IMG/VR virus record: IMGVR_UViG_3300029288_000063
Location: 64,001 to 128,000 of that record
Source: a virus
Lineage: Duplodnaviria > Caudoviricetes
DNA length: 64,000 bases
Strand: one strand, 5' to 3'
Part shown: piece by piece, positions 22,438 to 62,685 of the stretch
Layout: every line of letters starts with the position of its first letter
Position numbering within the stretch: the first letter of the stretch is position 1
Position numbers and translations under genes: made by a program
The notes under the pieces: model-generated
Told to the model about the DNA's origin: nothing
What the model saw: only the letters and a program-made list of their open reading frames with translations
The model's database searches: none

Positions 22438-22953
22438 ATGGATGGTGATGTTAAAAGGTCCAAAAGGGTTGATATTCCTGCCTCGGCAATAGAGGCTATG
22501 AAAATGGCCTCGCGTCATATGGACGAGCAGGACAGGGAAAAAGAAGGTCTGCCGCCCGACCTTCCGAAAGGTCACCCGGCGATTCGTGCCATGATGTCAC
22601 AGCGTCATCGTGAGTCGATGGGTGCGTCTAAAGAAAAGCCACAAAAGAAACAACAGAAAAAGCAGGCATCTGTTGATGCCGGTCAAAAGGAAAAGGTCAA
22701 GAGGTGTGTTGACCTGATTGGTTCAATCTCTGAACGGTCTGTCGCTGTAGACAAGTCACTGCGTGAACTATATGAAGCCTCTGTTGAGGCTTCAGAGTTG
22801 ATGAGTGATAATCCATCCATGCGCGTGCGTCTTGGACGTCTTGGTCGGATGATATTTTCTTTTCACGCCGTTCTGCGGGATTGTTGTGGGCCGCTTCAGC
22901 ATGTTGCCCAGCAGATGCAACAGAATCCTGACAGTATGAAGTCGGAGGAATAA
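22438..22953 (+). CDS. hypothetical protein
   Basis: GGAG SD. Confidence 0.6.
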   Translation: MDGDVKRSKRVDIPASAIEAMKMASRHMDEQDREKEGLPPDLPKGHPAIRAMMSQRHRESMGASKEKPQKKQQKKQASVDAGQKEKVKRCVDLIGSISERSVAVDKSLRELYEASVEASELMSDNPSMRVRLGRLGRMIFSFHAVLRDCCGPLQHVAQQMQQNPDSMKSEE

Positions 22954-22956
22954 CAC

Positions 22957-25900
22957 ATGGCCAAGCGGAAAGTAAGCGCGAAATCCGAACCGGTTGTTGC
23001 CGCCTCGAAAGACGGCATTATACGTGTGCCAGTAACGAGTGCGTCGGCACGGACAGGTAAGGTTGACCCGGTGAAAACGAAGATTGCCGCGAAGCAGGAG
23101 CGGTTCCAGCGTATCGCGTCCGGCGTTGCAAATGGGATGTATCGTGAGGCAGGCATGATGATGTCCACCTCGCCGAATGCAACCGGCACGTGGGGTTCAG
23201 GTAGCCTTCCTGCGTTCCGAACGTCCTATGCGTCGGGAAACACGATGGTCGGAGGTGGAACGACAGATATTCCGCCGTACTTCCAAATCATGAACGACAA
23301 AAACGGCGGGTTGATTTACTGGCCGGTATCGTTGCGTGAGAAGTATGAGTGGTATCGATATTGGGCGAGGTGCTTCACAAACCCCAACGTCATGATTACA
23401 CGAGAAGATGGAACAGAAGCACCGCTGTGCTCTTTCAAAAAGGGTGATCGGGTTATCAACGGAATCGGCGGGGTTACTGAGGTTTCAGAGGTAACGACTC
23501 AAAAATATGAGGGTGCTGTTGTTCGCCTTGATGTCGAGGCTAATCGGTGGAACGATATTGAGACGACACCAGAACATCCATTTTTTGTTCTTCGTTCTGA
23601 GAATGTTTGTCGGCACCACAACCGGATTACAGACGAGGACGGTGTGGAGCATCGCAAGACGAGCGTTGAGATTAACTTTTTGCCGGAGTGGGTTGAGGCG
23701 AAGGATATTCGTGTTGGGGATATGTTGATTGTTCCTTCAACGAGTAAATCCTTCGAGTCAGTTATGTCTGTTGAGCGTGCGAGGCTTGTTGGTTATTATG
23801 CGGCAGAGGGCAATGTAAACTTTGATCGAAACGGAGAACCAGAAGCTGTCACGTGGAGCCTTGGGACTCACGAGGACGATTTGATCGAAGAGATAAAGAG
23901 CCTGTGCGTTACAGAGCTTGGTTGTGTTCCTTCCACTTACAATTACCCAGAACGTGAGTCTTGTACCTCTCTGAGGGTGTGGGATAGGGAATTTGCAAAA
24001 TGGGTCGTTGAAAACTGCGGGGTTGGTTCTCATTCCAAGAAGTTTTCTCGGCTCATTTTTGAGGCGGACGATGAGACTGTTCGCCATATTGTTGGCTGCT
24101 GGTTGAACGGTGATGGAAATCGGGACGATGCGGAGGCTGAAGGTCAGGTTGATGGGACAACCTGTTCGTTTGATATGGCAAACCAATTGTTCCTGATGAT
24201 GGTGCGAGTTGGACTTGCGCCAGCTAAAAGGGTGAAAGATGTGACGGTTTTTGGTTGCGGAGAGAAGTCTGGAAACAAGGCTTGTCGAATCTTTTTGCCT
24301 CCGATGTTTGCCAACAAGATCGTTGAGTACTTCAAGTGGGATGGGTGTGTGAAGTCTCATCGTCATCGAAAGTACAACCACGATGGGAACATGTTGTTGC
24401 CAGTTCGAGGGATAAAGCTTCGTGAGTTTTCTGGTGTTATTTGGAACCTCTCAACGAGTGGCTCTTCGTACGAAGAACGCACTTTCTTGGTTCACGGGAT
24501 GGTCACCCACAACACTGACGCCTTTATTGGGCGCGGGTTGGAGCTTCTGGCCGACCTTCCAATGTCACGCATCTCTTTAAACATGCCGAAGATGGAGAAG
24601 AAGCCCAAAAAGCTCCGCGATGAGATTTACGCCTTCTTCACGGGGATGTGCGAGAACATCGGGCTGTTTCGCAGGTTGCAGGAAAACCTGTGGGAGTACA
24701 ACCTGATTGGGAACGTGTACATCTATCACGAATGGAACAGCAAGCGCAAGATGTGGGAGCGCATCGTGACGTTGCCGCCTGAAGAGGTGAGTGTTTTTCA
24801 GTATCCTTTCCAAGACAACGCTCGCGTTGAATACCGTCCGGAGGCACTCATGCGGGTTGTTCAAGCCGCAGATGCTGGCAATATGGATGGTGATGATATC
24901 TCTCAAAGAATATTTGCCGGTATTCCGAAGGATGTCGCAGAGATGATTCGTGGGCAGGGATGCGTGATCTTTGATAGCTCACCTATTATTGATAGCAAGG
25001 TTGGGTCGTTTGTTTACCATATGGCAAGGCGTCGGTCGCCATATCTTGACCTCGGGGCTTCTGTGTTGGAGCGTGTTCTTGTTCCAATGCTGATGAAGGA
25101 GCACTTCCGCTATACCCAGCTTGGTTTGGCGTCGCGTAATATGACTCCGAAAAATAAGGTTTCCGCTCCGGGGTTGACACAGCCTGAGCTTGACGACCTT
25201 CGGATGCAGATGGATTTGTCCTATATGGACCCCGATTATTCCATCGTGACCAACTACGATTGGGACTGGGAACAGATTGGTGCCGACGGACGTTTGCTTG
25301 ATTTGCAGGGCGAATATGAAGCTATTGAAAATCAGGTGTTTTCGGCTATGGGTGTGACACGTGAATTGATGACGGGTGAAGGCTCGTGGTCAGGCAACCG
25401 CGTCACCATCGAGATTATCAACACAATGTTCCTCCTGACCCGTGAGATGCTTCGTGAGTATGTAGAGAACTTTTTGTTTCGCCCTGTAGCCATTGCACAT
25501 GGATGGTATGAAGAGGACAAGAATGGTGTCAGGGAATACTGGTATCCGAAGCTTGGGTTCAATCGCCTGTCAATTCGTGATAATTCGGAAGTTTTTGACA
25601 GTCTCTTCCAGCTCTACATGAAGGGTTCTGTCCCGGTCGATGTTATGTACGAGCTGTTCAACCTCGACCCGGAAGCCATGCATGAAAAAATGCACTCTGA
25701 TGTGTTTACGTTGAAAGATTCAACATTCAACCGGCTTCTGGAAGAGGTCAACTTTTCTGTTGGTCAAAAAATTGTTGAATCGACTGACGTTATGCAGAGG
25801 GTTGCTGATTACCTTGGTTTGAAGGTTTCGGACAATCCTCCTGCCAGTGATGAAGATGGTGGATTCGGCGGTGGTGGGTTTGATGGTGGCTTTGAATCCG

Positions 25901-42985: not shown

Positions 42986-43094
42986 CAGCACGCTTCAGAC
43001 ATGGGTTACTTCTTTTCTCATACAAAAGACCTGACGGTTCGACTCCGTCGTTGGGTGGCCCCGGTAACGTCGCCTGTGTCGCTTTTTGGTGCTG
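42986..43094 (+). ncRNA. Y RNA-like ncRNA
   Basis: CAGCAC-GCTTCA-GACATGGG-TTACTTC ... T arm ... CCTGTGTC-GCTTTTTG-GTGCTG. Confidence 0.7.
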
Positions 43095-43106
43095 GTTTTT
43101 CGGTTT

Positions 43107-43247
43107 GCGTCACACTTCAGGATGGACATACTTCTGACGCTTAATAGCCGGCTGCGGGTTCGATTCCCGTCGGTCAACTTCGGTTGGCTGTTGCTCATGG
43201 TTGAGCCGTTTGTTCGGTTGAGCCGTTCGTTCGACTTTTGGTGACGC
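43107..43247 (+). ncRNA. Y RNA-like ncRNA with permuted tRNA domain
   Basis: Shared terminal module; T arm, UUCG-closed acceptor-like stem, D arm. Confidence 0.75.
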
Positions 43248-43258
43248 TTTTGTATTGC

Positions 43259-43332
43259 GACGGAGGAGTTGGGTTCGAGTCCCGACCGGAAGCCCATACG
43301 GGATTCCGTGGCGTAACAGGCAGCGTGCCGTC
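43259..43332 (+). ncRNA. stand-alone permuted tRNA-like element
   Basis: GACGG/CCGTC closing stem, T arm GGGTTCGAGTCCC, looped acceptor stem, D-like arm. Confidence 0.55.
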
Positions 43333-43345
43333 ATCTTGTTTTTTT

Positions 43346-43505
43346 CCACACGCTTCAGCGATGGGTTACTTCCATGCTAAGGACGAGGTCGCAGGTTCGA
43401 ATCCTGCTCCCCCAACCCTTGCCCCTGTGATTCTGCGGGGGTATGGGCTGGGGGATGGCTCAGCGGTAGAGCGCGTAAACTAGCCTGTTGCGACTTTTGG
43501 TGTGG
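43346..43505 (+). ncRNA. Y RNA-like ncRNA with permuted tRNA domain
   Basis: Shared module; GCAGGTTCGAATCCTGC precedes GGCTCAGCGGTAGAGC. Confidence 0.8.
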
Positions 43506-48109: not shown

Positions 48110-48325
48110 ATGGATTCGATTCAAGCCGCTATTTCACGTTTGTTTGTTTTGGTAGAAAAAGCAGAATCCAACCAAGAAGACATTTCGGTAAGCCGATATG
48201 TATGTCGGTTGTGCGGTGAAAGTCGACAGTCACTTTGCGAGTGTATAGATCACATTGTTGGTCTGCATTCTGAAAGGCTGAATGAGGTTCGCAACGCTGT
48301 AGATGTGATATGTAAGCGGGTGTAG
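48110..48325 (+). CDS. small C2H2-like Zn-finger protein
   Basis: CRLC...HIVGLH. Confidence 0.45.
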   Translation: MDSIQAAISRLFVLVEKAESNQEDISVSRYVCRLCGESRQSLCECIDHIVGLHSERLNEVRNAVDVICKRV

Positions 48326-48373
48326 CTCAATGGTAGAGCGCCAGCCGTATTAGAAAGGATTTGGGATAGATTA

Positions 48374-48447
48374 GCGCCTATGGTGTAGTGGCCGCATCTT
48401 TGCCTTCCAAGCAAAGGGTCCGTGTTCAAATCACGGTAGGCGCTCCA
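48374..48447 (+). tRNA. tRNA-Gly(TCC), nested replacement
   Basis: TTTGC-CTTCCAA-GCAAA, CCA. Confidence 0.9.
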
Positions 48448-48522
48448 AACCAATAAATTCTTTATATTCGACCCGCTGTTTTGGAACCCGTAATTGGGTT
48501 CCAAAACAGGAGGGGGGTCGAC

Positions 48523-49185
48523 ATGAAGAGTGATGAACGACAAGAGGCAAGAAAACTCAGGGGACAGGGATTATCTGTCAAAGAAATAACAAGGAGAGTC
48601 GGAGTCGCAAAGTCGTCAGTGAGTCGCTGGGTCAGAGACATCGAGCTTACTGACGAACAAAAAATGAACCTCCGACCATGCACAGTTGCTTTTGGAATCA
48701 ATCGATTAAGGTATTTTTCTGAACTTCGGGACTCATACAGAGAAGTAGGGAGAGACCAAGCCAAGAAAAACAACCTTTTGCATGCAATGGGGTGCATGCT
48801 CTACTGGGCAGAAGGATGGCACACAAACAATCGGAACTGTATGAAGTTTTCAAACTCAAGTGTTCCGATGATGAAATTGTTTCTGAAGTTCCTGCGGAAT
48901 GAGATGTCTGTAAAAGATAATGATGTCATCATCAAGATACATTGTTATACAGACAAAAGGAGCGCAAGCGACATTGAATCGCACTGGCTTAACGAACTCG
49001 GTCTTCCGCAAAACTGTTTGAGGAAAACGGTGGCAGACAAAAGGCCGGGGTGTACGCAGAACAAACGCAACAACATTCTGGAATGGGGAACATGCCATCT
49101 GATTATACATGACGTGAGAGTCGTTCAAGGCATCTACGGCGCAATCGAGGAGTATGGGAAATTCAGGAATGGTGCATGGGATTGA
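48523..49185 (+). CDS. HTH + LAGLIDADG-like endonuclease
   Basis: GLSVKEITRRVGVAKSSVSRW; GCMLYWAEG, FSNS; A-rich composition. Confidence 0.7.
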   Translation: MKSDERQEARKLRGQGLSVKEITRRVGVAKSSVSRWVRDIELTDEQKMNLRPCTVAFGINRLRYFSELRDSYREVGRDQAKKNNLLHAMGCMLYWAEGWHTNNRNCMKFSNSSVPMMKLFLKFLRNEMSVKDNDVIIKIHCYTDKRSASDIESHWLNELGLPQNCLRKTVADKRPGCTQNKRNNILEWGTCHLIIHDVRVVQGIYGAIEEYGKFRNGAWD

Positions 49186-49247
49186 GCCAAGCTGGTTATG
49201 AGGGTTCGATTCCCTTCACCCGCTCCAAATTTGGAAGGTGGTGAGAC

Positions 49248-49708: not shown

Positions 49709-49896
49709 GGCGGCAGAGCCTCGGTGGTCGGGGGACGGTGTGAAAAGAAGTCCAATATGGGAAATACAAAAAGAAAGTCTTGAAGAGATTATCTCTTTGT
49801 CGGCTTCCGTGTCAGAGGTTTTGCGGCGATTGGGGATGAAAACAACGTGCGGTGGAACATATCGAACGCTGATGCGAAGGATAAAAGAAGAAATAA
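49709..49896 (+). pseudogene. tRNA-Cys-like 5' half (49709-49739) and truncated HNH N-terminus (49740-49896)
   Basis: GGCGGCA-GA-GCCTCGGTGGTCGGGG-GACGG; peptide resembles the N-terminus of the 62073 HNH. Confidence 0.6.
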
Positions 49897-49972
49897 GGCG
49901 AGCGAACCCATGCGGCATGGGGACGGACTGCAAACCCGTTAAACTCTGGTTCGACTCCAGCGCTCGCTTCCA
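49897..49972 (+). tRNA. tRNA-Cys(GCA), divergent
   Basis: CT-GCA-AA loop, U73, CCA. Confidence 0.82.
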
Positions 49973-51266: not shown

Positions 51267-51359
51267 TGAAGTGGCTATTTAATATTGTTTTCCCGTTTGG
51301 GATTCCGTATTGATATCGCCAGCATAGCTCAATTGGTAGAGCACCTGCTTTGTTGTAAC

Positions 51360-51433
51360 GCTGGCATAGTTCAATGATAGAATAGTTGTCTTGTAAGCAT
51401 CAGACGATGGTTTGATTCCATCTGCCAGCTCCA
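51360..51433 (+). tRNA. tRNA-Thr(TGT), nested divergent replacement
   Basis: CT-TGT-AA loop, A19:U56 compensatory pair, CCA; one anticodon-stem mismatch. Confidence 0.75.
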
Positions 51434-51506
51434 ACAAACAGAAACGCAGACCAAGTGACCAATTCTTTTATGGTCTCCATTCGAATAGCGTAGTCGGCTA
51501 TTTTGG

Positions 51507-52199
51507 ATGGAGGACAAGAGAATGTTCAAGTGCGAAAAGTGTGGTAAGGAGTTTGACAACGAGAGGTCGTTTAGTGGGCACAAAGGTGCCTGCGGGAAGA
51601 AAAAAGAGTGTCCTGTTTGTTGTCGGATGATAAGTGTTTCGAATTTTATTGCGCATGTGAAGTCGCATGAAAACGACAAGGCTTGTCCAGCGTGTGGTGG
51701 GGTGGTTCATGGTCGTGGACGCTTTTGCTCGAAAAGTTGTGCTGCCTCGGTGAACAATGTTGGTGTTGTTCGCAATGGGGTAAAAAAGAAAGACGCGTTT
51801 TGTTTAACGTGTGGAAAGATTTTGGTTCGACGTCAGGTTAAATATTGTTCAAATCATTGCCAACAAGAAAAGAAATATAGAGAATACATAGGTCGGTGGT
51901 TGATTGGAAAAGAAACAGGCAACATGGATGGTTGTATGAATATATCAAATTATGTTCGACGTTGGCTATACGAAACGAGGGGGAAAAGGTGTGAGGGGTG
52001 CGGGTGGGCGAGAAAACATTCGATGGACGGTTCGATTCCGATTCAAGTCGAGCACATTGATGGTAATGCTCAAAACACGACACCTGAAAACTTGAGGATA
52101 TTGTGTCCGAGTTGCCATAGTTTAACGTTGACCTTTGGAAACAGAAACAAGGGAAAGGGTCGATCAAAGAGGCGATCAAAGAGGTGTTCAAAAGAGTAA
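51507..52199 (+). CDS. Zn-finger HNH endonuclease
   Basis: EHIDGN..N..PENLRILCPSCH; several CxxC. Confidence 0.9.
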   Translation: MEDKRMFKCEKCGKEFDNERSFSGHKGACGKKKECPVCCRMISVSNFIAHVKSHENDKACPACGGVVHGRGRFCSKSCAASVNNVGVVRNGVKKKDAFCLTCGKILVRRQVKYCSNHCQQEKKYREYIGRWLIGKETGNMDGCMNISNYVRRWLYETRGKRCEGCGWARKHSMDGSIPIQVEHIDGNAQNTTPENLRILCPSCHSLTLTFGNRNKGKGRSKRRSKRCSKE

Positions 52200-52309
52200 G
52201 CAGGCGGTTGGGGGTTCGAGTCCCTCTGCTGGCTCCATAAAGAAGCTACTTTCCTTCATGAAAACGCCGATATGGCTCAGGAGGTACTCTACCTACTTGG
52301 ACAACAAAT

Positions 52310-53110: not shown

Positions 53111-53620
53111 ATGAAGGTATTGCTTTTGAACCATTCGGAAGAAATTTTGGACGTGATCTCGTGGCAGCGTGCGGTGACGTTGTTGTTTTCGGGAAAGGCC
53201 CGGAAGCCGCATGGCTATGATGATGAGTACGAAATCAAGACCGTGTCCGGTGTTTTCCGGCTTCCGTCGGCTATTGTCCTCGTCTCGTATGTTCGGATTC
53301 CGTACAAGAAGGCGGCAGTCAACAAGGAAAACGTGTTGAAGCGTGACAAGTTCACCTGTCAATACTGTGGTAAGCATTTGACGATGTCATCCGGCACAAT
53401 CGACCACGTTCACCCGACATCTCGTGGCGGGCGGCATGAGTGGAAGAACGTTGTTGCTGCGTGCGCAAAGTGCAACAATAAGAAGGCGAATCAGCGTCCG
53501 GAAGAAGCCGGGATGGTTTTGTTGTCTCATCCGTCCGTGCCGACCCGCAACCTGATTGTTTTGACGGGTATAAATCCCCATACTCTTGGGACGTGGACGA
53601 GGTGGGTTGACCTTGGTTAA
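53111..53620 (+). CDS. HNH endonuclease (McrA-like)
   Basis: RDKFTCQYCG, TIDHVHP.SRGG..W.N..AC.KCN. Confidence 0.9.
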   Translation: MKVLLLNHSEEILDVISWQRAVTLLFSGKARKPHGYDDEYEIKTVSGVFRLPSAIVLVSYVRIPYKKAAVNKENVLKRDKFTCQYCGKHLTMSSGTIDHVHPTSRGGRHEWKNVVAACAKCNNKKANQRPEEAGMVLLSHPSVPTRNLIVLTGINPHTLGTWTRWVDLG

Positions 53621-55251: not shown

Positions 55252-55473
55252 ATGATTGACAACCACACTGTTGGTTCTGTGAAACGCATTTCGCCGGTGT
55301 TGAATAGGAATGCTATTGTAAAGAGTGGTGGAGTCCTCCAACAGTCGGAGGAGGTTGGTTATGTTGTAAGGGAGAAAATCGGCGTTGGAGTATATAACCC
55401 ATCCGCGTTAAATCTGTTCTTAAAAAAAGAGTCTGAAGGGGCGTTGCCTGTTTATGATGAAGACCCGAATTGA
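55252..55473 (+). CDS. hypothetical protein
   Basis: GAGG SD. Confidence 0.45.
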   Translation: MIDNHTVGSVKRISPVLNRNAIVKSGGVLQQSEEVGYVVREKIGVGVYNPSALNLFLKKESEGALPVYDEDPN

Positions 55474-57641
55474 AATTCTGTTATGAACTTGATATAGGAA
55501 AGCTGAATATGATCAGGAGAGTTCTTTTTTCGATAGTAGTGGTTGCTGCTATTTGCACTGTTGTTTTAGTGACGATATCAATGACTGTCGTCAAAAATGG
55601 ATTCTCTTCTGTAGATGAGGATCGGGTGATTGAATCCTCACACCTTGTTCGTTCTATCGTTCAAAGAGAATTGCTCGGTTTGGCCAGCACTGTTGGGGAT
55701 TGGTCACGGTGGGATGATGCTTGGGAGTATGTTAATCAAGACGGCAAAGATAGGTCTTTTGTCGAACAAAATATTGATCTCGCTTCACTATTACAGTTGC
55801 GCGTGTTTTATGTCATGTTTCTTGGACGGGATGGACATCCTATTTCCGAATTTGTTGTTCGTGACGGGGACATCTATGAGGTTCCGAATTCCGAGCTGTC
55901 CTTGGCGTCTATAGATGGTTTTCAATCGGCATCTGAACGGTGCATGCGCGGCGAGGTTGTGCAGGGTTTGTCTTGGATAGGAGACAAGATGTCCTTGGTG
56001 GCAATGTCGTCTATCTCTAAGTCGGACGGTTCGTGTGTCGGAAACGGTATGTTGGTTTTCTGTCGTGATGCGTCCGGTATGGTTTCGGAAATTAACAAGA
56101 CGTTTGAGTCGTTTTCGATATCCGGTGATTGTTCAAGCGAGATAATGAACGACCTCGTTATCAATACCTCCGATTCGAGCGTGTCTGGGACTTTTCTTGT
56201 TCCCAGTGTTGAGGGAGGGAAAAACTATCTCGCAAGCCTATCTGTTCCGAGCTTTTCCGAGTTGCAGGGCAACCGCATTATCCTTGTTTTCGTTTTTGCG
56301 AGTATAGGGTTTGTTTTCGTTGTTTCGATTGCGCTGTGGAAGGTTGTTGATAGGATGGTATTATCGAGGCTTTCTGTCACAATGTCCGCTGTCAAAGAGA
56401 TTGGTCGTTCTGCCGATGTGACAAAGAAGCTGCCCGGTGGTGAATGTTCTGATGAGTTTGGCGTTTTCATTCACAACTTGAACGATATGCTTGAATCTAT
56501 TCGCGTGTCAGAAGAAAAGACAAAAGAATCAGAAAATGCTTTAAAACGTTCTGAGCGAGTAACACTTCTTGGCAAATTCGCGGAGGGTATTGCGCACGAC
56601 CTGAATAACCTTTTGGCAATTATTAAGGGCTATGCGGACTCGTTGAAGTTTGCCGGTTCACTTTCTGAATCTCTCGTGCTGTGTGACAACATAAGTTCCA
56701 CAGTCGGAGAATGTACGGCTTTGATTGGTAAGATTTTGTCGTTTTCGAGGCGTGGTAATATCAACTTTGTGCCGGTTGATCTGCACCCATTGTTGGGTGA
56801 TATATGTTCGATGTTTCATTACGCCATAGAGAAAAAGAGTGTATGTTTTGAATCGGTTATGGGGGCGGAGAACAGTGTGGTTCATGGGAACAAGTCTGAA
56901 ATTCAAAATGCCATATTGAGTCTGTTGGTTAATGCCCGAGAGGCTGTTTCTGATAATGGTCATATCTTTATCAAATCAAGAAACGTTATCGACCCTGACG
57001 GTTTGTCTTCTGGTGAATATGTGGAGGTGGAGGTGAGTGATGACGGTGTTGGAATTCCTCCGTCGATTATGAAAAATCTTTTTGTTCCATTTCAAACAAC
57101 AAAGGAATATGGAAAGGGTCTTGGACTTTCTTTTGTTCATGGGACGGCGGAAAGACACAAAGGAAGGGTAAGTGTTTCCAGTATTCCCGGTAAAACATCT
57201 GTGCTGCTCTTGATTCCGTGCTCTGAAAAAAAGGCTAGTGTTCCGGAGAAAAACAGCGTTATGAGACATAAGACTCCGTGTGTTGTGCATGTCGAAGATG
57301 AGGCGGCCATTCGTGAAATCGTTAAGTTGCAGCTTGAGGATGATGGGTTTTGTGTGAAATCTTTTGCGCATGGTGATGGTGCGATTAGTTATGTTCGTGA
57401 ACACAAGCAAGATGTTGACTTTGCGATTCTCGACTTCGCGGTTCCTCCTGTGGATGGTGTTTACATCTTTCATGAGATGAGAAAGATTATACCAACTCTT
57501 CCAGTTGCGTTTATGACTGGTTTTTGTGACGCTAGGGCTGAAGACTTGCGTGCCGAGGGGGCGGTCGGTGTTTTCGAGAAACCAATCAATTTCAAGTCAG
57601 TTCTTAGTCTTCTGAACGATATACTTGGAAAGCGTGGGTAG
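55470..57641 (+). CDS. membrane hybrid histidine kinase (CHASE4-HAMP-HisKA-HATPase-REC)
   Basis: DWSRWDD, two TMs, DEFG, AHDLNN, DDGVG, GLGL, VEDE. Confidence 0.9.
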   Translation: MKFCYELDIGKLNMIRRVLFSIVVVAAICTVVLVTISMTVVKNGFSSVDEDRVIESSHLVRSIVQRELLGLASTVGDWSRWDDAWEYVNQDGKDRSFVEQNIDLASLLQLRVFYVMFLGRDGHPISEFVVRDGDIYEVPNSELSLASIDGFQSASERCMRGEVVQGLSWIGDKMSLVAMSSISKSDGSCVGNGMLVFCRDASGMVSEINKTFESFSISGDCSSEIMNDLVINTSDSSVSGTFLVPSVEGGKNYLASLSVPSFSELQGNRIILVFVFASIGFVFVVSIALWKVVDRMVLSRLSVTMSAVKEIGRSADVTKKLPGGECSDEFGVFIHNLNDMLESIRVSEEKTKESENALKRSERVTLLGKFAEGIAHDLNNLLAIIKGYADSLKFAGSLSESLVLCDNISSTVGECTALIGKILSFSRRGNINFVPVDLHPLLGDICSMFHYAIEKKSVCFESVMGAENSVVHGNKSEIQNAILSLLVNAREAVSDNGHIFIKSRNVIDPDGLSSGEYVEVEVSDDGVGIPPSIMKNLFVPFQTTKEYGKGLGLSFVHGTAERHKGRVSVSSIPGKTSVLLLIPCSEKKASVPEKNSVMRHKTPCVVHVEDEAAIREIVKLQLEDDGFCVKSFAHGDGAISYVREHKQDVDFAILDFAVPPVDGVYIFHEMRKIIPTLPVAFMTGFCDARAEDLRAEGAVGVFEKPINFKSVLSLLNDILGKRG

Positions 57642-57706
57642 CTCAATGGCAGAGCGAGGGCTTCTAAAGCCCTGCGTTATGGGTTCGAGTCCCATCCTAC
57701 GCACCA
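57632..57706 (+). tRNA. amber suppressor tRNA (CTA)
   Basis: AGGGC-TT-CTA-AA-GCCCT, canonical D and T arms, CCA. Confidence 0.85.
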
Positions 57707-61813: not shown

Positions 61814-61890
61814 GGACACGTAGCTCAGTTGGTTAGAGCGCTGCCCTGTCACGGCAGAGGTCACCGGTTCGAGTCCGGTCGTGTCCGCCA
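61814..61890 (+). tRNA. tRNA-Asp(GTC)
   Basis: Cloverleaf, CCA. Confidence 0.92.
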
Positions 61891-61898
61891 AAATTTAC

Positions 61899-61974
61899 TG
61901 TGTGGTAGCTCAGTTGGTAGAGCACGGCCCTGAAAAGGCCGGTGTCACCGGTTCGACCCCGGTTCCCACAACCA
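61899..61974 (+). tRNA. tRNA-Phe(GAA)
   Basis: Cloverleaf with one acceptor mismatch, CCA. Confidence 0.82.
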
Positions 61975-62072
61975 AATATAGGCGTATAGCTCAATTGGTA
62001 GAGCACCGGTTCCAAAAACCTTCGGTTTGATAAATAATTTTATAATCTCGTGTCTGTTGAATGGAGACAGAC

Positions 62073-62600
62073 ATGAGGAAGACAAAGTGGACAGATGAAG
62101 AATTGTCGTTGTATGTTGCCGAGTCGTTTGGTTTTTCTGACCTTTTGAGAAAGTTAAAACTTTCAGTATCTAGTGGAAATTACAAGACAATAAGAAGACG
62201 TATAGAAAGTCTTTGTTTGGATACTAGGCATTGGACTGGAAAGTCTCAATGTGGAGATCGAAACCCAAGTTTTCGTCACAGAATTCCGCTTGAACAGATT
62301 TTGGTAGAGAATGGGTTTTATAGGAATCTGCCAAGATTGAAACAGAGGTTGATTAAAGAGGGTTTGTTAGAAAACAAGTGTGCTATTTGCGGACTTAGTT
62401 CTGTGTGGAATAATAAGAAAATTGTTATGATTTTGGATCATGTAAATGGTGAATCATTTGATCATAGATTTGAAAATTTGAGACTTGTTTGTCCGAATTG
62501 TAATAGTCAGATTGATACTTTTGCTGGAAGAAACAAGAAGAAAAAACGAACGGATGCAGCAAGTGGGTGTTGCGGTCAGACTCCAAATCTGACGTCTTAG
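62073..62600 (+). CDS. HNH endonuclease
   Basis: CAICG, LDHVNG..DHRFENLRLVCPNCN; AT-rich. Confidence 0.9.
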   Translation: MRKTKWTDEELSLYVAESFGFSDLLRKLKLSVSSGNYKTIRRRIESLCLDTRHWTGKSQCGDRNPSFRHRIPLEQILVENGFYRNLPRLKQRLIKEGLLENKCAICGLSSVWNNKKIVMILDHVNGESFDHRFENLRLVCPNCNSQIDTFAGRNKKKKRTDAASGCCGQTPNLTS

Positions 62601-62627
62601 CGGGTTCGATTCCTGTCATCCGTGCCA
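62550..62627 (+). tRNA. tRNA-Trp(CCA), nested divergent replacement
   Basis: ACGGATG/CATCCGT, TCAGA-CTCCAAA-TCTGA, C8:G14, G73 and CCA. Confidence 0.85.
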
Positions 62628-62685
62628 ATCTTGTAATCCGTTCAAAACCGGCGGTTGGGGGTTCGAGTCCCTCTGCGCCTGCCAT

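Follow-up and report, generated by a model that had tools for sequence, protein, structure and literature searches.

A tRNA-Trp gene in a viral genome record is split at its anticodon loop by a 629-nt insert that brings an HNH endonuclease gene and a second, complete tRNA-Trp(CCA), and the insert is likely to be a non-spliced homing-endonuclease cassette of a cut-and-replace kind. Unless stated otherwise, coordinates refer to the window, the whole 64,000-nt stretch that was analyzed (positions 64,001 to 128,000 of IMGVR_UViG_3300029288_000063). The resident gene survives as a 5′ half (tRNA positions 1–32; 61980–62011, + strand) and a 3′ half (positions 35–76, with G73 and the CCA end; 62643–62684, + strand), and these outer halves pair fully in the acceptor stem (7/7) and anticodon stem (5/5). 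Outer positions 8–31 and 35–58 are identical to those of an intact tRNA-Trp(CCA) of another phage (L006), which, together with discriminator base G73, identifies the broken gene as a tRNA-Trp. The space between the halves holds an AT-rich leader of 49 nt (31% GC), the HNH gene, which is the sole ORF of the insert, and a complete inner tRNA-Trp(CCA) called by ARAGORN (62550–62627, + strand). With pairing halves, an HNH ORF, and an inner tRNA-Trp(CCA) all found, the initial annotation's picture of a nuclease and a replacement tRNA within a broken tRNA-Trp gene is borne out.

Is the locus genuine, and which genetic code applies to it? The parent record is a linear viral sequence of 253,102 nt with a CheckV completeness of 75%, and it holds 57 tRNA genes (ARAGORN), one tmRNA (133990–134334), and an RtcB gene (22691–23920; both in G000 contig coordinates). 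A single unitig of the probable source run, a landfill metagenome, covers 61833–62672 with zero differences and a depth of 50, against 47 for the flanks; thus, the Trp locus is not an assembly chimera. Long ORFs in the record end in all three stop codons, and the DnaE (1318 aa) and RtcB frames are free of internal stops, so translation table 11 applies. A genome recoded at TGA or TAG was considered and dropped, TGA being the commonest stop of long plus-strand ORFs and DnaE and RtcB being uninterrupted. A search with the exact 5′-half pattern gave 0 matches to an uninserted allele of the present phage, and runs X2–X4 gave only short, low-depth pieces, with no joint across the Trp insert among the matches listed; these searches turned up no closely related strain either.

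Anticodon-loop-like strings had been noted at both junctions, as a possible degenerate duplication; both strings are present, and the duplication stands at the left junction and fails at the right. On the left, 62015–62027 is identical to 62644–62656 at 11 of 13 positions with an offset of exactly 629, so that the duplication covers tRNA positions 36–48 and is longer than earlier noted; about 2e-4 of genomic 20-mers match the native continuation equally well. On the right, no significant extra copy precedes C35, since 55–66% of random 13-mers score equally. The altered left copy (62012–62027, + strand; tRNA positions 33–48) differs from the native sequence at positions 33, 35, 42, and 43 and breaks off at position 48–50. 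Without these changes the copy would contain the complete anticodon arm, which is the presumed target, so selection against self-cutting (i.e., for immunity) may have left them as scars. In-register joins of the outer halves yield UCA, CCA with C33, or CAA with C33, and none combines U33 with CCA; no normal Trp tRNA can be obtained by joining the halves in register. Nor does the insert look like an attB/attP-type integrative element, as no recombinase gene was found and the resident tRNA-Trp is not restored.

The nuclease gene itself appears intact. Its ORF (62061–62600, + strand) terminates at a TAG (62598–62600), and translation probably begins at its second ATG (62073), which follows a GGAG (62063–62066) by 6 nt and gives 175 aa as in P0001 (179 aa from the ATG at 62061). 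Its GC content is 35.6%, compared with 48.9% for the window. The protein matches PHROG 10822 (E 1.8e-43) and retains the catalytic and zinc residues C107, C110, D126, H127, N139, C144, and C147, which include two CxxC motifs and are invariant in 50 homologs; the Pfam HNH score, 18.6 bits, falls under the 21.4-bit cut-off. A structure model (pLDDT 86.5) shows a nuclease domain and a three-helix N-terminal domain, the latter modelled at high confidence. Fold matches to HNH and helix-turn-helix (HTH) domains were all weak (best Z 5.4), those of the N-terminal domain to HTH/Myb domains reached only Z 3–3.7, and a sequence search returned no solved structure for the protein; as modelled, the N-terminal helical domain is DNA-binding-like. 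The gene lies within neither an intron nor an intein: it has its own start and stop, there is no group I match, and there is no room for a ribozyme core.

What kind of tRNA does the cassette supply? TrpRS recognizes its tRNA through the CCA anticodon, G73, and A1-U72, and the inner tRNA-Trp carries all of these, with a canonical anticodon loop (CU CCA AA). It is the only intact tRNA-Trp in the record according to ARAGORN and is identical to the outer tRNA at 43 of 78 positions. No TrpRS gene was found in the 75%-complete record, and charging by the host enzyme is therefore presumed. The C8:G14 combination reported for the inner tRNA in place of U8:A14 is confirmed (C8 at 62557, G14 at 62563), and the U8:A14 tertiary pair is absent. 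Pattern searches returned 10 viral loci and 2 matches in 185,579 species genomes, which together represent 9 distinct tRNA-Trp sequences of the same type. All 9 have G14, though the search pattern left position 14 free, and no U8 version of the class was found in these searches. In the class of 10, window copy included, 97.3% of stem cells are paired and 16 of 22 pairs show compensatory change, a count qualified by the fixed D stem of the search pattern; members share a 7-nt D loop and a six-position anticodon helix. Given the compensatory changes and the constancy of G14, the class is a conserved and probably working tRNA rather than a decayed gene. A literature search found no paper matching "C8-G14" with tRNA. 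That C8:G14 is a defect of the cassette can be ruled out, as it marks a covarying tRNA-Trp class that usually occurs without a PHROG 10822-type nuclease: the HNH family of the window overlaps none of the 9 other members (0/9). The class adjoins three unrelated nuclease families; at L173, for example, an unrelated PHROG 655 nuclease overlaps the C8:G14 tRNA by 31 nt and is preceded by a truncated piece that, judged by eye, resembles an ordinary tRNA-Trp. The near-identical arrays L173 (6313–7135) and L174 (4411–4484) hold the same C8:G14 tRNA-Trp with and without this tRNA-piece-plus-nuclease block, which is bounded by 8-nt repeats.

The HNH frame runs 51 nt into the inner tRNA-Trp, exactly as the initial annotation stated: the last 17 codons (TDAASGCCGQTPNLTS followed by the stop at 62598–62600) lie within the tRNA gene that begins at 62550. 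The further suggestion that this overlap links the two genes in a special physical way is not supported by comparison with other loci. The nuclease ORF ends inside a same-strand downstream tRNA at 37 of the 141 assessable family loci, the present one included, the 723-aa histidine kinase gene of the window likewise ends 10 nt inside a tRNA, and T4 segB is similar. The overlap is exactly 10 nt in 13 of those 37 loci, 11 of which stop on a TAG formed by the tRNA's own U8-A9-G10. In the present case, positions 8–10 are out of frame, so C8 can be excluded as the cause of the read-through into the tRNA. The overlapped peptide also falls outside the conserved part of the HNH family, and the arrangement reads as an ordinary run-on of the frame into a neighboring tRNA, with no lasting bond between the two. 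It may nonetheless affect expression, as RNase P cleavage at 62550 would likely truncate the nuclease mRNA. In T4, maturation of tRNA-Arg has been proposed to cut the segB mRNA just before its stop codon and so damp segB (PMC2330249).

How is the nuclease gene expressed? The initial annotation credited the insert with its own AT-rich site upstream of the ORF. The site exists, TTTTATAAT at 62038–62046 (+ strand) with TATAAT at 62041–62046, and as a promoter it is a candidate only: no sigma-70 −35/−10 pair was found there, the TATAAT being without a −35 partner. The site is one base off the motif TGTATAAT, which occurs 21 times on the plus strand and once on the minus strand of the G000 contig and, to judge from this distribution, is likely a phage promoter motif. 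With a single mismatch from so strand-biased a motif, an internal promoter at TTTTATAAT is plausible. Directly after the TATAAT, a 12-bp hairpin (62047–62077, + strand) covers part of the GGAG and the ATG at 62073; its folding energy is −18.1 kcal/mol when whole and −5.0 kcal/mol if the RNA starts at 62053, and the nearest homolog, at L005, has a similar hairpin (z = −3.3). The hairpin may thereby control translation of the nuclease. Such an arrangement has been reported for I-TevI-type nucleases, and for T4 segB it has been proposed that control is exerted by a hairpin covering the Shine-Dalgarno site together with the start codon (PMC2330249).

Do the nuclease and its inner tRNA move independently in other genomes, which would speak against the linkage that had been drawn between them? 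In part they do: the tRNA gene has been swapped, and the amino-acid type has been kept. The nearest homolog, L005, is 57% identical and sister to the window protein (support 98), and its nuclease overlaps a tRNA-Trp(CCA) by 91 nt; this partner has the canonical U8:A14 pair, and no nesting is visible there. Upstream of the L005 nuclease there may be an orphan D-arm, a weak candidate of no assignable tRNA type that 6 of 200 shuffles equal. The canonical partner of L005, together with the 9 C8:G14 sequences that lack the HNH family and the L173/L174 pair, in which the C8:G14 tRNA occurs with and without an unrelated nuclease, accounts for the independent part of the pattern. A tRNA lies within 300 nt at 134 of 148 family loci, and the type of the neighboring tRNA clusters on a FastTree phylogeny of the 148 members (158 columns), with 67 changes compared with 89.3 after shuffling (0/200 shuffles), although near-copies inflate this clustering. 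Groups for Gln, Leu, and Phe can be recognized on the tree, as can many switches. From this pattern, a nuclease lineage tends to keep its amino-acid type while the partner tRNA gene is swapped, as expected if that tRNA is the nuclease target.

Most family members simply adjoin an intact tRNA. The nested design is visible at 8 of the 148 other family loci, a lower bound as they were found partly by eye, and the inner tRNA type matches that suggested by the halves, outer types being inferred. These loci are L012, L019, and L173 (Leu), L153 (Phe), L128 (Gln), L115 (Trp), L086 (Tyr), and L122 (His); at L012, the nuclease is on the opposite strand. In two viral contigs, L018 (501–1359) and L036 (1323–2111), family HNH genes occupy the place of the canonical tRNA-Leu(UAA) intron. 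The two inserts share the ending GTGGTAAG, L036 has a weak Rfam group I match, and both are probably group I introns by these features. Taken with the nested loci, they indicate that the same HNH family seems to use both splicing and replacement. Orphan tRNA 5′ halves are stacked before the inner tRNA at L128 (1218–2162) and L159 (1318–1443), which suggests repeated invasions of one site.

The window holds two further cassettes of this design, and in all three the outer halves are fully paired. At 48316–49227, tRNA-Gly halves surround an inner tRNA-Gly(TCC) (48374–48447) and an ORF of 220–234 aa with an N-terminal HTH domain, for which the searches yielded no nuclease family; comparison with intact tRNA-Gly sequences in the samples shows a loss of two loop bases (TT) where the gene is broken. 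At 51318–52237, tRNA-Thr(TGT) halves surround an inner tRNA-Thr(TGT) and a 230-aa HNH protein gene (PHROG 1271), which takes its TAA stop codon from the outer anticodon loop; the left copy there has an extra TGT. Junctions thus range from a 2-nt loss (Gly) through short duplications (Thr and L012) to the 13 nt of the Trp cassette, and such case-to-case differences argue against any fixed insertion chemistry. The broken outer tRNA-Thr and tRNA-Trp share a near-identical body, as if one derived from the other; the runs in common measure 22 nt in the 5′ half and 27 nt in the 3′ half. A stub of the Trp-cassette HNH family (N-terminal 50 aa, PHROG 10822, E 1e-5) at 49740–49972 runs into an odd tRNA-Cys(GCA) and is probably a decayed cassette. 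Another HNH gene (PHROG 16726) lies in the tRNA array at 53111–53620 and is not nested.

How could a broken gene and its spare have come to sit together? Under the cut-and-replace reading that we favor, the HNH protein would nick or cut ordinary tRNA-Trp genes in co-infecting phages at the anticodon arm, a target predicted from the position of the insert alone. Repair would then have filled the break with the nuclease gene plus a diverged tRNA-Trp(CCA), leaving the two halves and the duplicated positions 36–48 that are seen at the locus. Since the spare tRNA serves the same codon, the insertion would be tolerated, and with its different anticodon arm the spare would escape cutting. The resident halves could serve as homology arms for further homing. 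Nuclease levels would be kept low in two ways: the ribosome-binding site would be hidden by the hairpin except where transcription starts from the putative promoter at 62041, and processing of the overlapped tRNA at its 5′ end would cut the mRNA 16 codons before the stop. Recurrence of the nested design at the Gly and Thr cassettes and at 8 other family loci supports this reading, as does the sister relationship of the window and L005 proteins, both of whose genes overlap a tRNA-Trp(CCA). Counting against it are the small number of nested loci (8/148), the irregular junctions, and the failure to find an uninserted allele of the present phage. A stronger version is more tentative, and we think it somewhat less probable than not: that the nested form itself spreads, acting on tRNA genes as a natural cut-and-rescue gene drive and offering a third route, besides introns and inteins, into an essential gene. 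Its rescue cargo would be taken from a class of phage tRNA-Trp that seems not to have been described before and whose core is rewired (C8:G14, short D loop, six-pair anticodon helix), and the four left-copy changes would mark the recognition site.

The nested form could instead be a passing scar, in which a free-standing, SegB-like nuclease beside a resistant tRNA-Trp had a donor fragment dropped into the resident gene by one illegitimate recombination, and the product, not itself spread by homing, is later trimmed away. This shares the cutting, replacement, and tolerance steps with cut-and-replace homing and would fit the 134 of 148 family loci that lie near a tRNA and yet are seldom nested, the un-nested L005, the L173/L174 difference between 8-nt repeats, and the irregular junctions. 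However, three cassettes with fully pairing halves in one genome fit recent or repeated homing better than three slow accidents, and the altered left copy is left unexplained; we regard the scar as unlikely. An RNA-level intron, either self-splicing or cut and then ligated by RtcB, with a U32/U33 join producing an opal-reading tRNA-Trp(UCA), appears far less probable still. The 5′ part does end in U (T62011) and the insert in G (G62640), a coincidence expected by chance about 1 time in 16; ARAGORN joins the perfect halves to an anticodon TCA, RtcB is encoded in the record, and L036, with its weak group I match, and L018 occupy a canonical intron site. Yet no RF00028 match was found at the locus (E<=1) or in the record, and a P3–P7 core would have to fit into the 49 nt that precede the ORF and the 13 nt that follow the inner tRNA, the only free stretches. 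An opal tRNA is also not needed where TGA is the commonest stop and DnaE and RtcB lack internal stops, the two anticodon-loop bases lost from the Gly cassette could not be restored by ligation, and the L012 nuclease is on the opposite strand. The least probable of these alternatives, to our mind, makes host defense the driving force: the C8:G14 tRNA-Trp would resist host anticodon nucleases or other attack on tRNA, with the nuclease as its spreading vehicle. In its favor, the class is nearly confined to viral contigs (10 loci vs. 2 matches in 185,579 species genomes), it adjoins three unrelated nuclease families, and SegB amplifies a tRNA gene against the Septu defense (PMC13096335); its anticodon loop, however, is canonical, and tRNA arrays are nuclease-rich anyway. 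Such a role would be compatible with the cut-and-replace reading.

How does the cassette compare with known elements in tRNA genes? Group I introns with homing endonucleases occur in tRNA anticodon loops, as at the tRNA-Leu(UAA) site. They share with the cassette a nuclease family (L036 and L018), the kind of target, and a U before the insert and a G at its end; the cassette, in contrast, has neither a ribozyme core nor room for one, and rescue would come from a spare gene rather than from splicing. When prophages and genomic islands integrate in a tRNA gene, an attP fragment restores it. The cassette resembles them in its tRNA-gene insertion, short duplication, and preserved function but has no integrase, measures 0.63 kb, and does not restore the resident gene. 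In setting and control, it is closest to T4 SegB, and in logic to fungal gene-hybrid elements. SegB of T4/T6 (PMC2330249; PMC13096335), a free-standing nuclease encoded in a phage tRNA array, makes its cuts inside tRNA genes, and hairpin and tRNA-processing control has been proposed for it; it is, however, a GIY-YIG enzyme that reads a T-loop motif and sits between genes, whereas the window nuclease is an HNH protein encoded inside a broken tRNA gene, at the anticodon arm, with a spare for the same amino acid. The mobile endonuclease ORFs of fungal mitochondria (Allomyces atp6; Glomus atp6, atp9, cox2, and nad3; PMC3630166) are likewise non-spliced and bring a replacing foreign sequence. What they carry, however, is just the 3′ end of a protein gene, which becomes fused to the 5′ part of the resident gene, whereas the cassette supplies a complete tRNA gene of its own and leaves neither resident half usable. 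The "tRNA within a tRNA intron" of Lak megaphages and jumbo phages (PMC6784885; PMC13037316) is also an interrupted tRNA gene whose insert holds a tRNA; the passages concerned call these enigmatic introns and give no nuclease or mechanism, whereas the present insert encodes a nuclease and none of the joins yields a normal Trp tRNA. Introns go unmentioned in the main text of PMC7162821. The titles and abstracts retrieved contained no description of nuclease-plus-replacement-tRNA cassettes, and published work shows only pieces of the design.

The cassette offers a testable mechanism for the giant-phage "tRNA inside a tRNA intron," whereby such loci would be broken genes with spares, not introns, and it would explain the fast turnover of phage tRNA arrays and their filling with divergent tRNAs. 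The locus holds its own substrates for a cleavage test, namely the predicted target, the presumably resistant spare, and the altered duplicate. It also points to a tRNA-Trp class without the near-universal U8:A14 pair; the in-register altered duplicate and this C8:G14 class are the parts most worth pursuing. Annotation carries a hazard here, as ARAGORN run with introns calls the locus a UGA-reading tRNA, which could be mistaken for recoding. Elsewhere in this table-11 genome, a tRNA with a CTA anticodon, possibly an amber suppressor (57632–57706), is overlapped by 10 nt by a CHASE4 hybrid histidine-kinase gene (55470–57641); if active, it could carry read-through of the HNH TAG to the TAA at 62634–62636. 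The window also contains orphan tRNA-like D arms and T arms, at 43449, 45273, and 61662 and at 43033–43420, 61450, and 61603, several of which share the motif TTGCGACTTTTGG.
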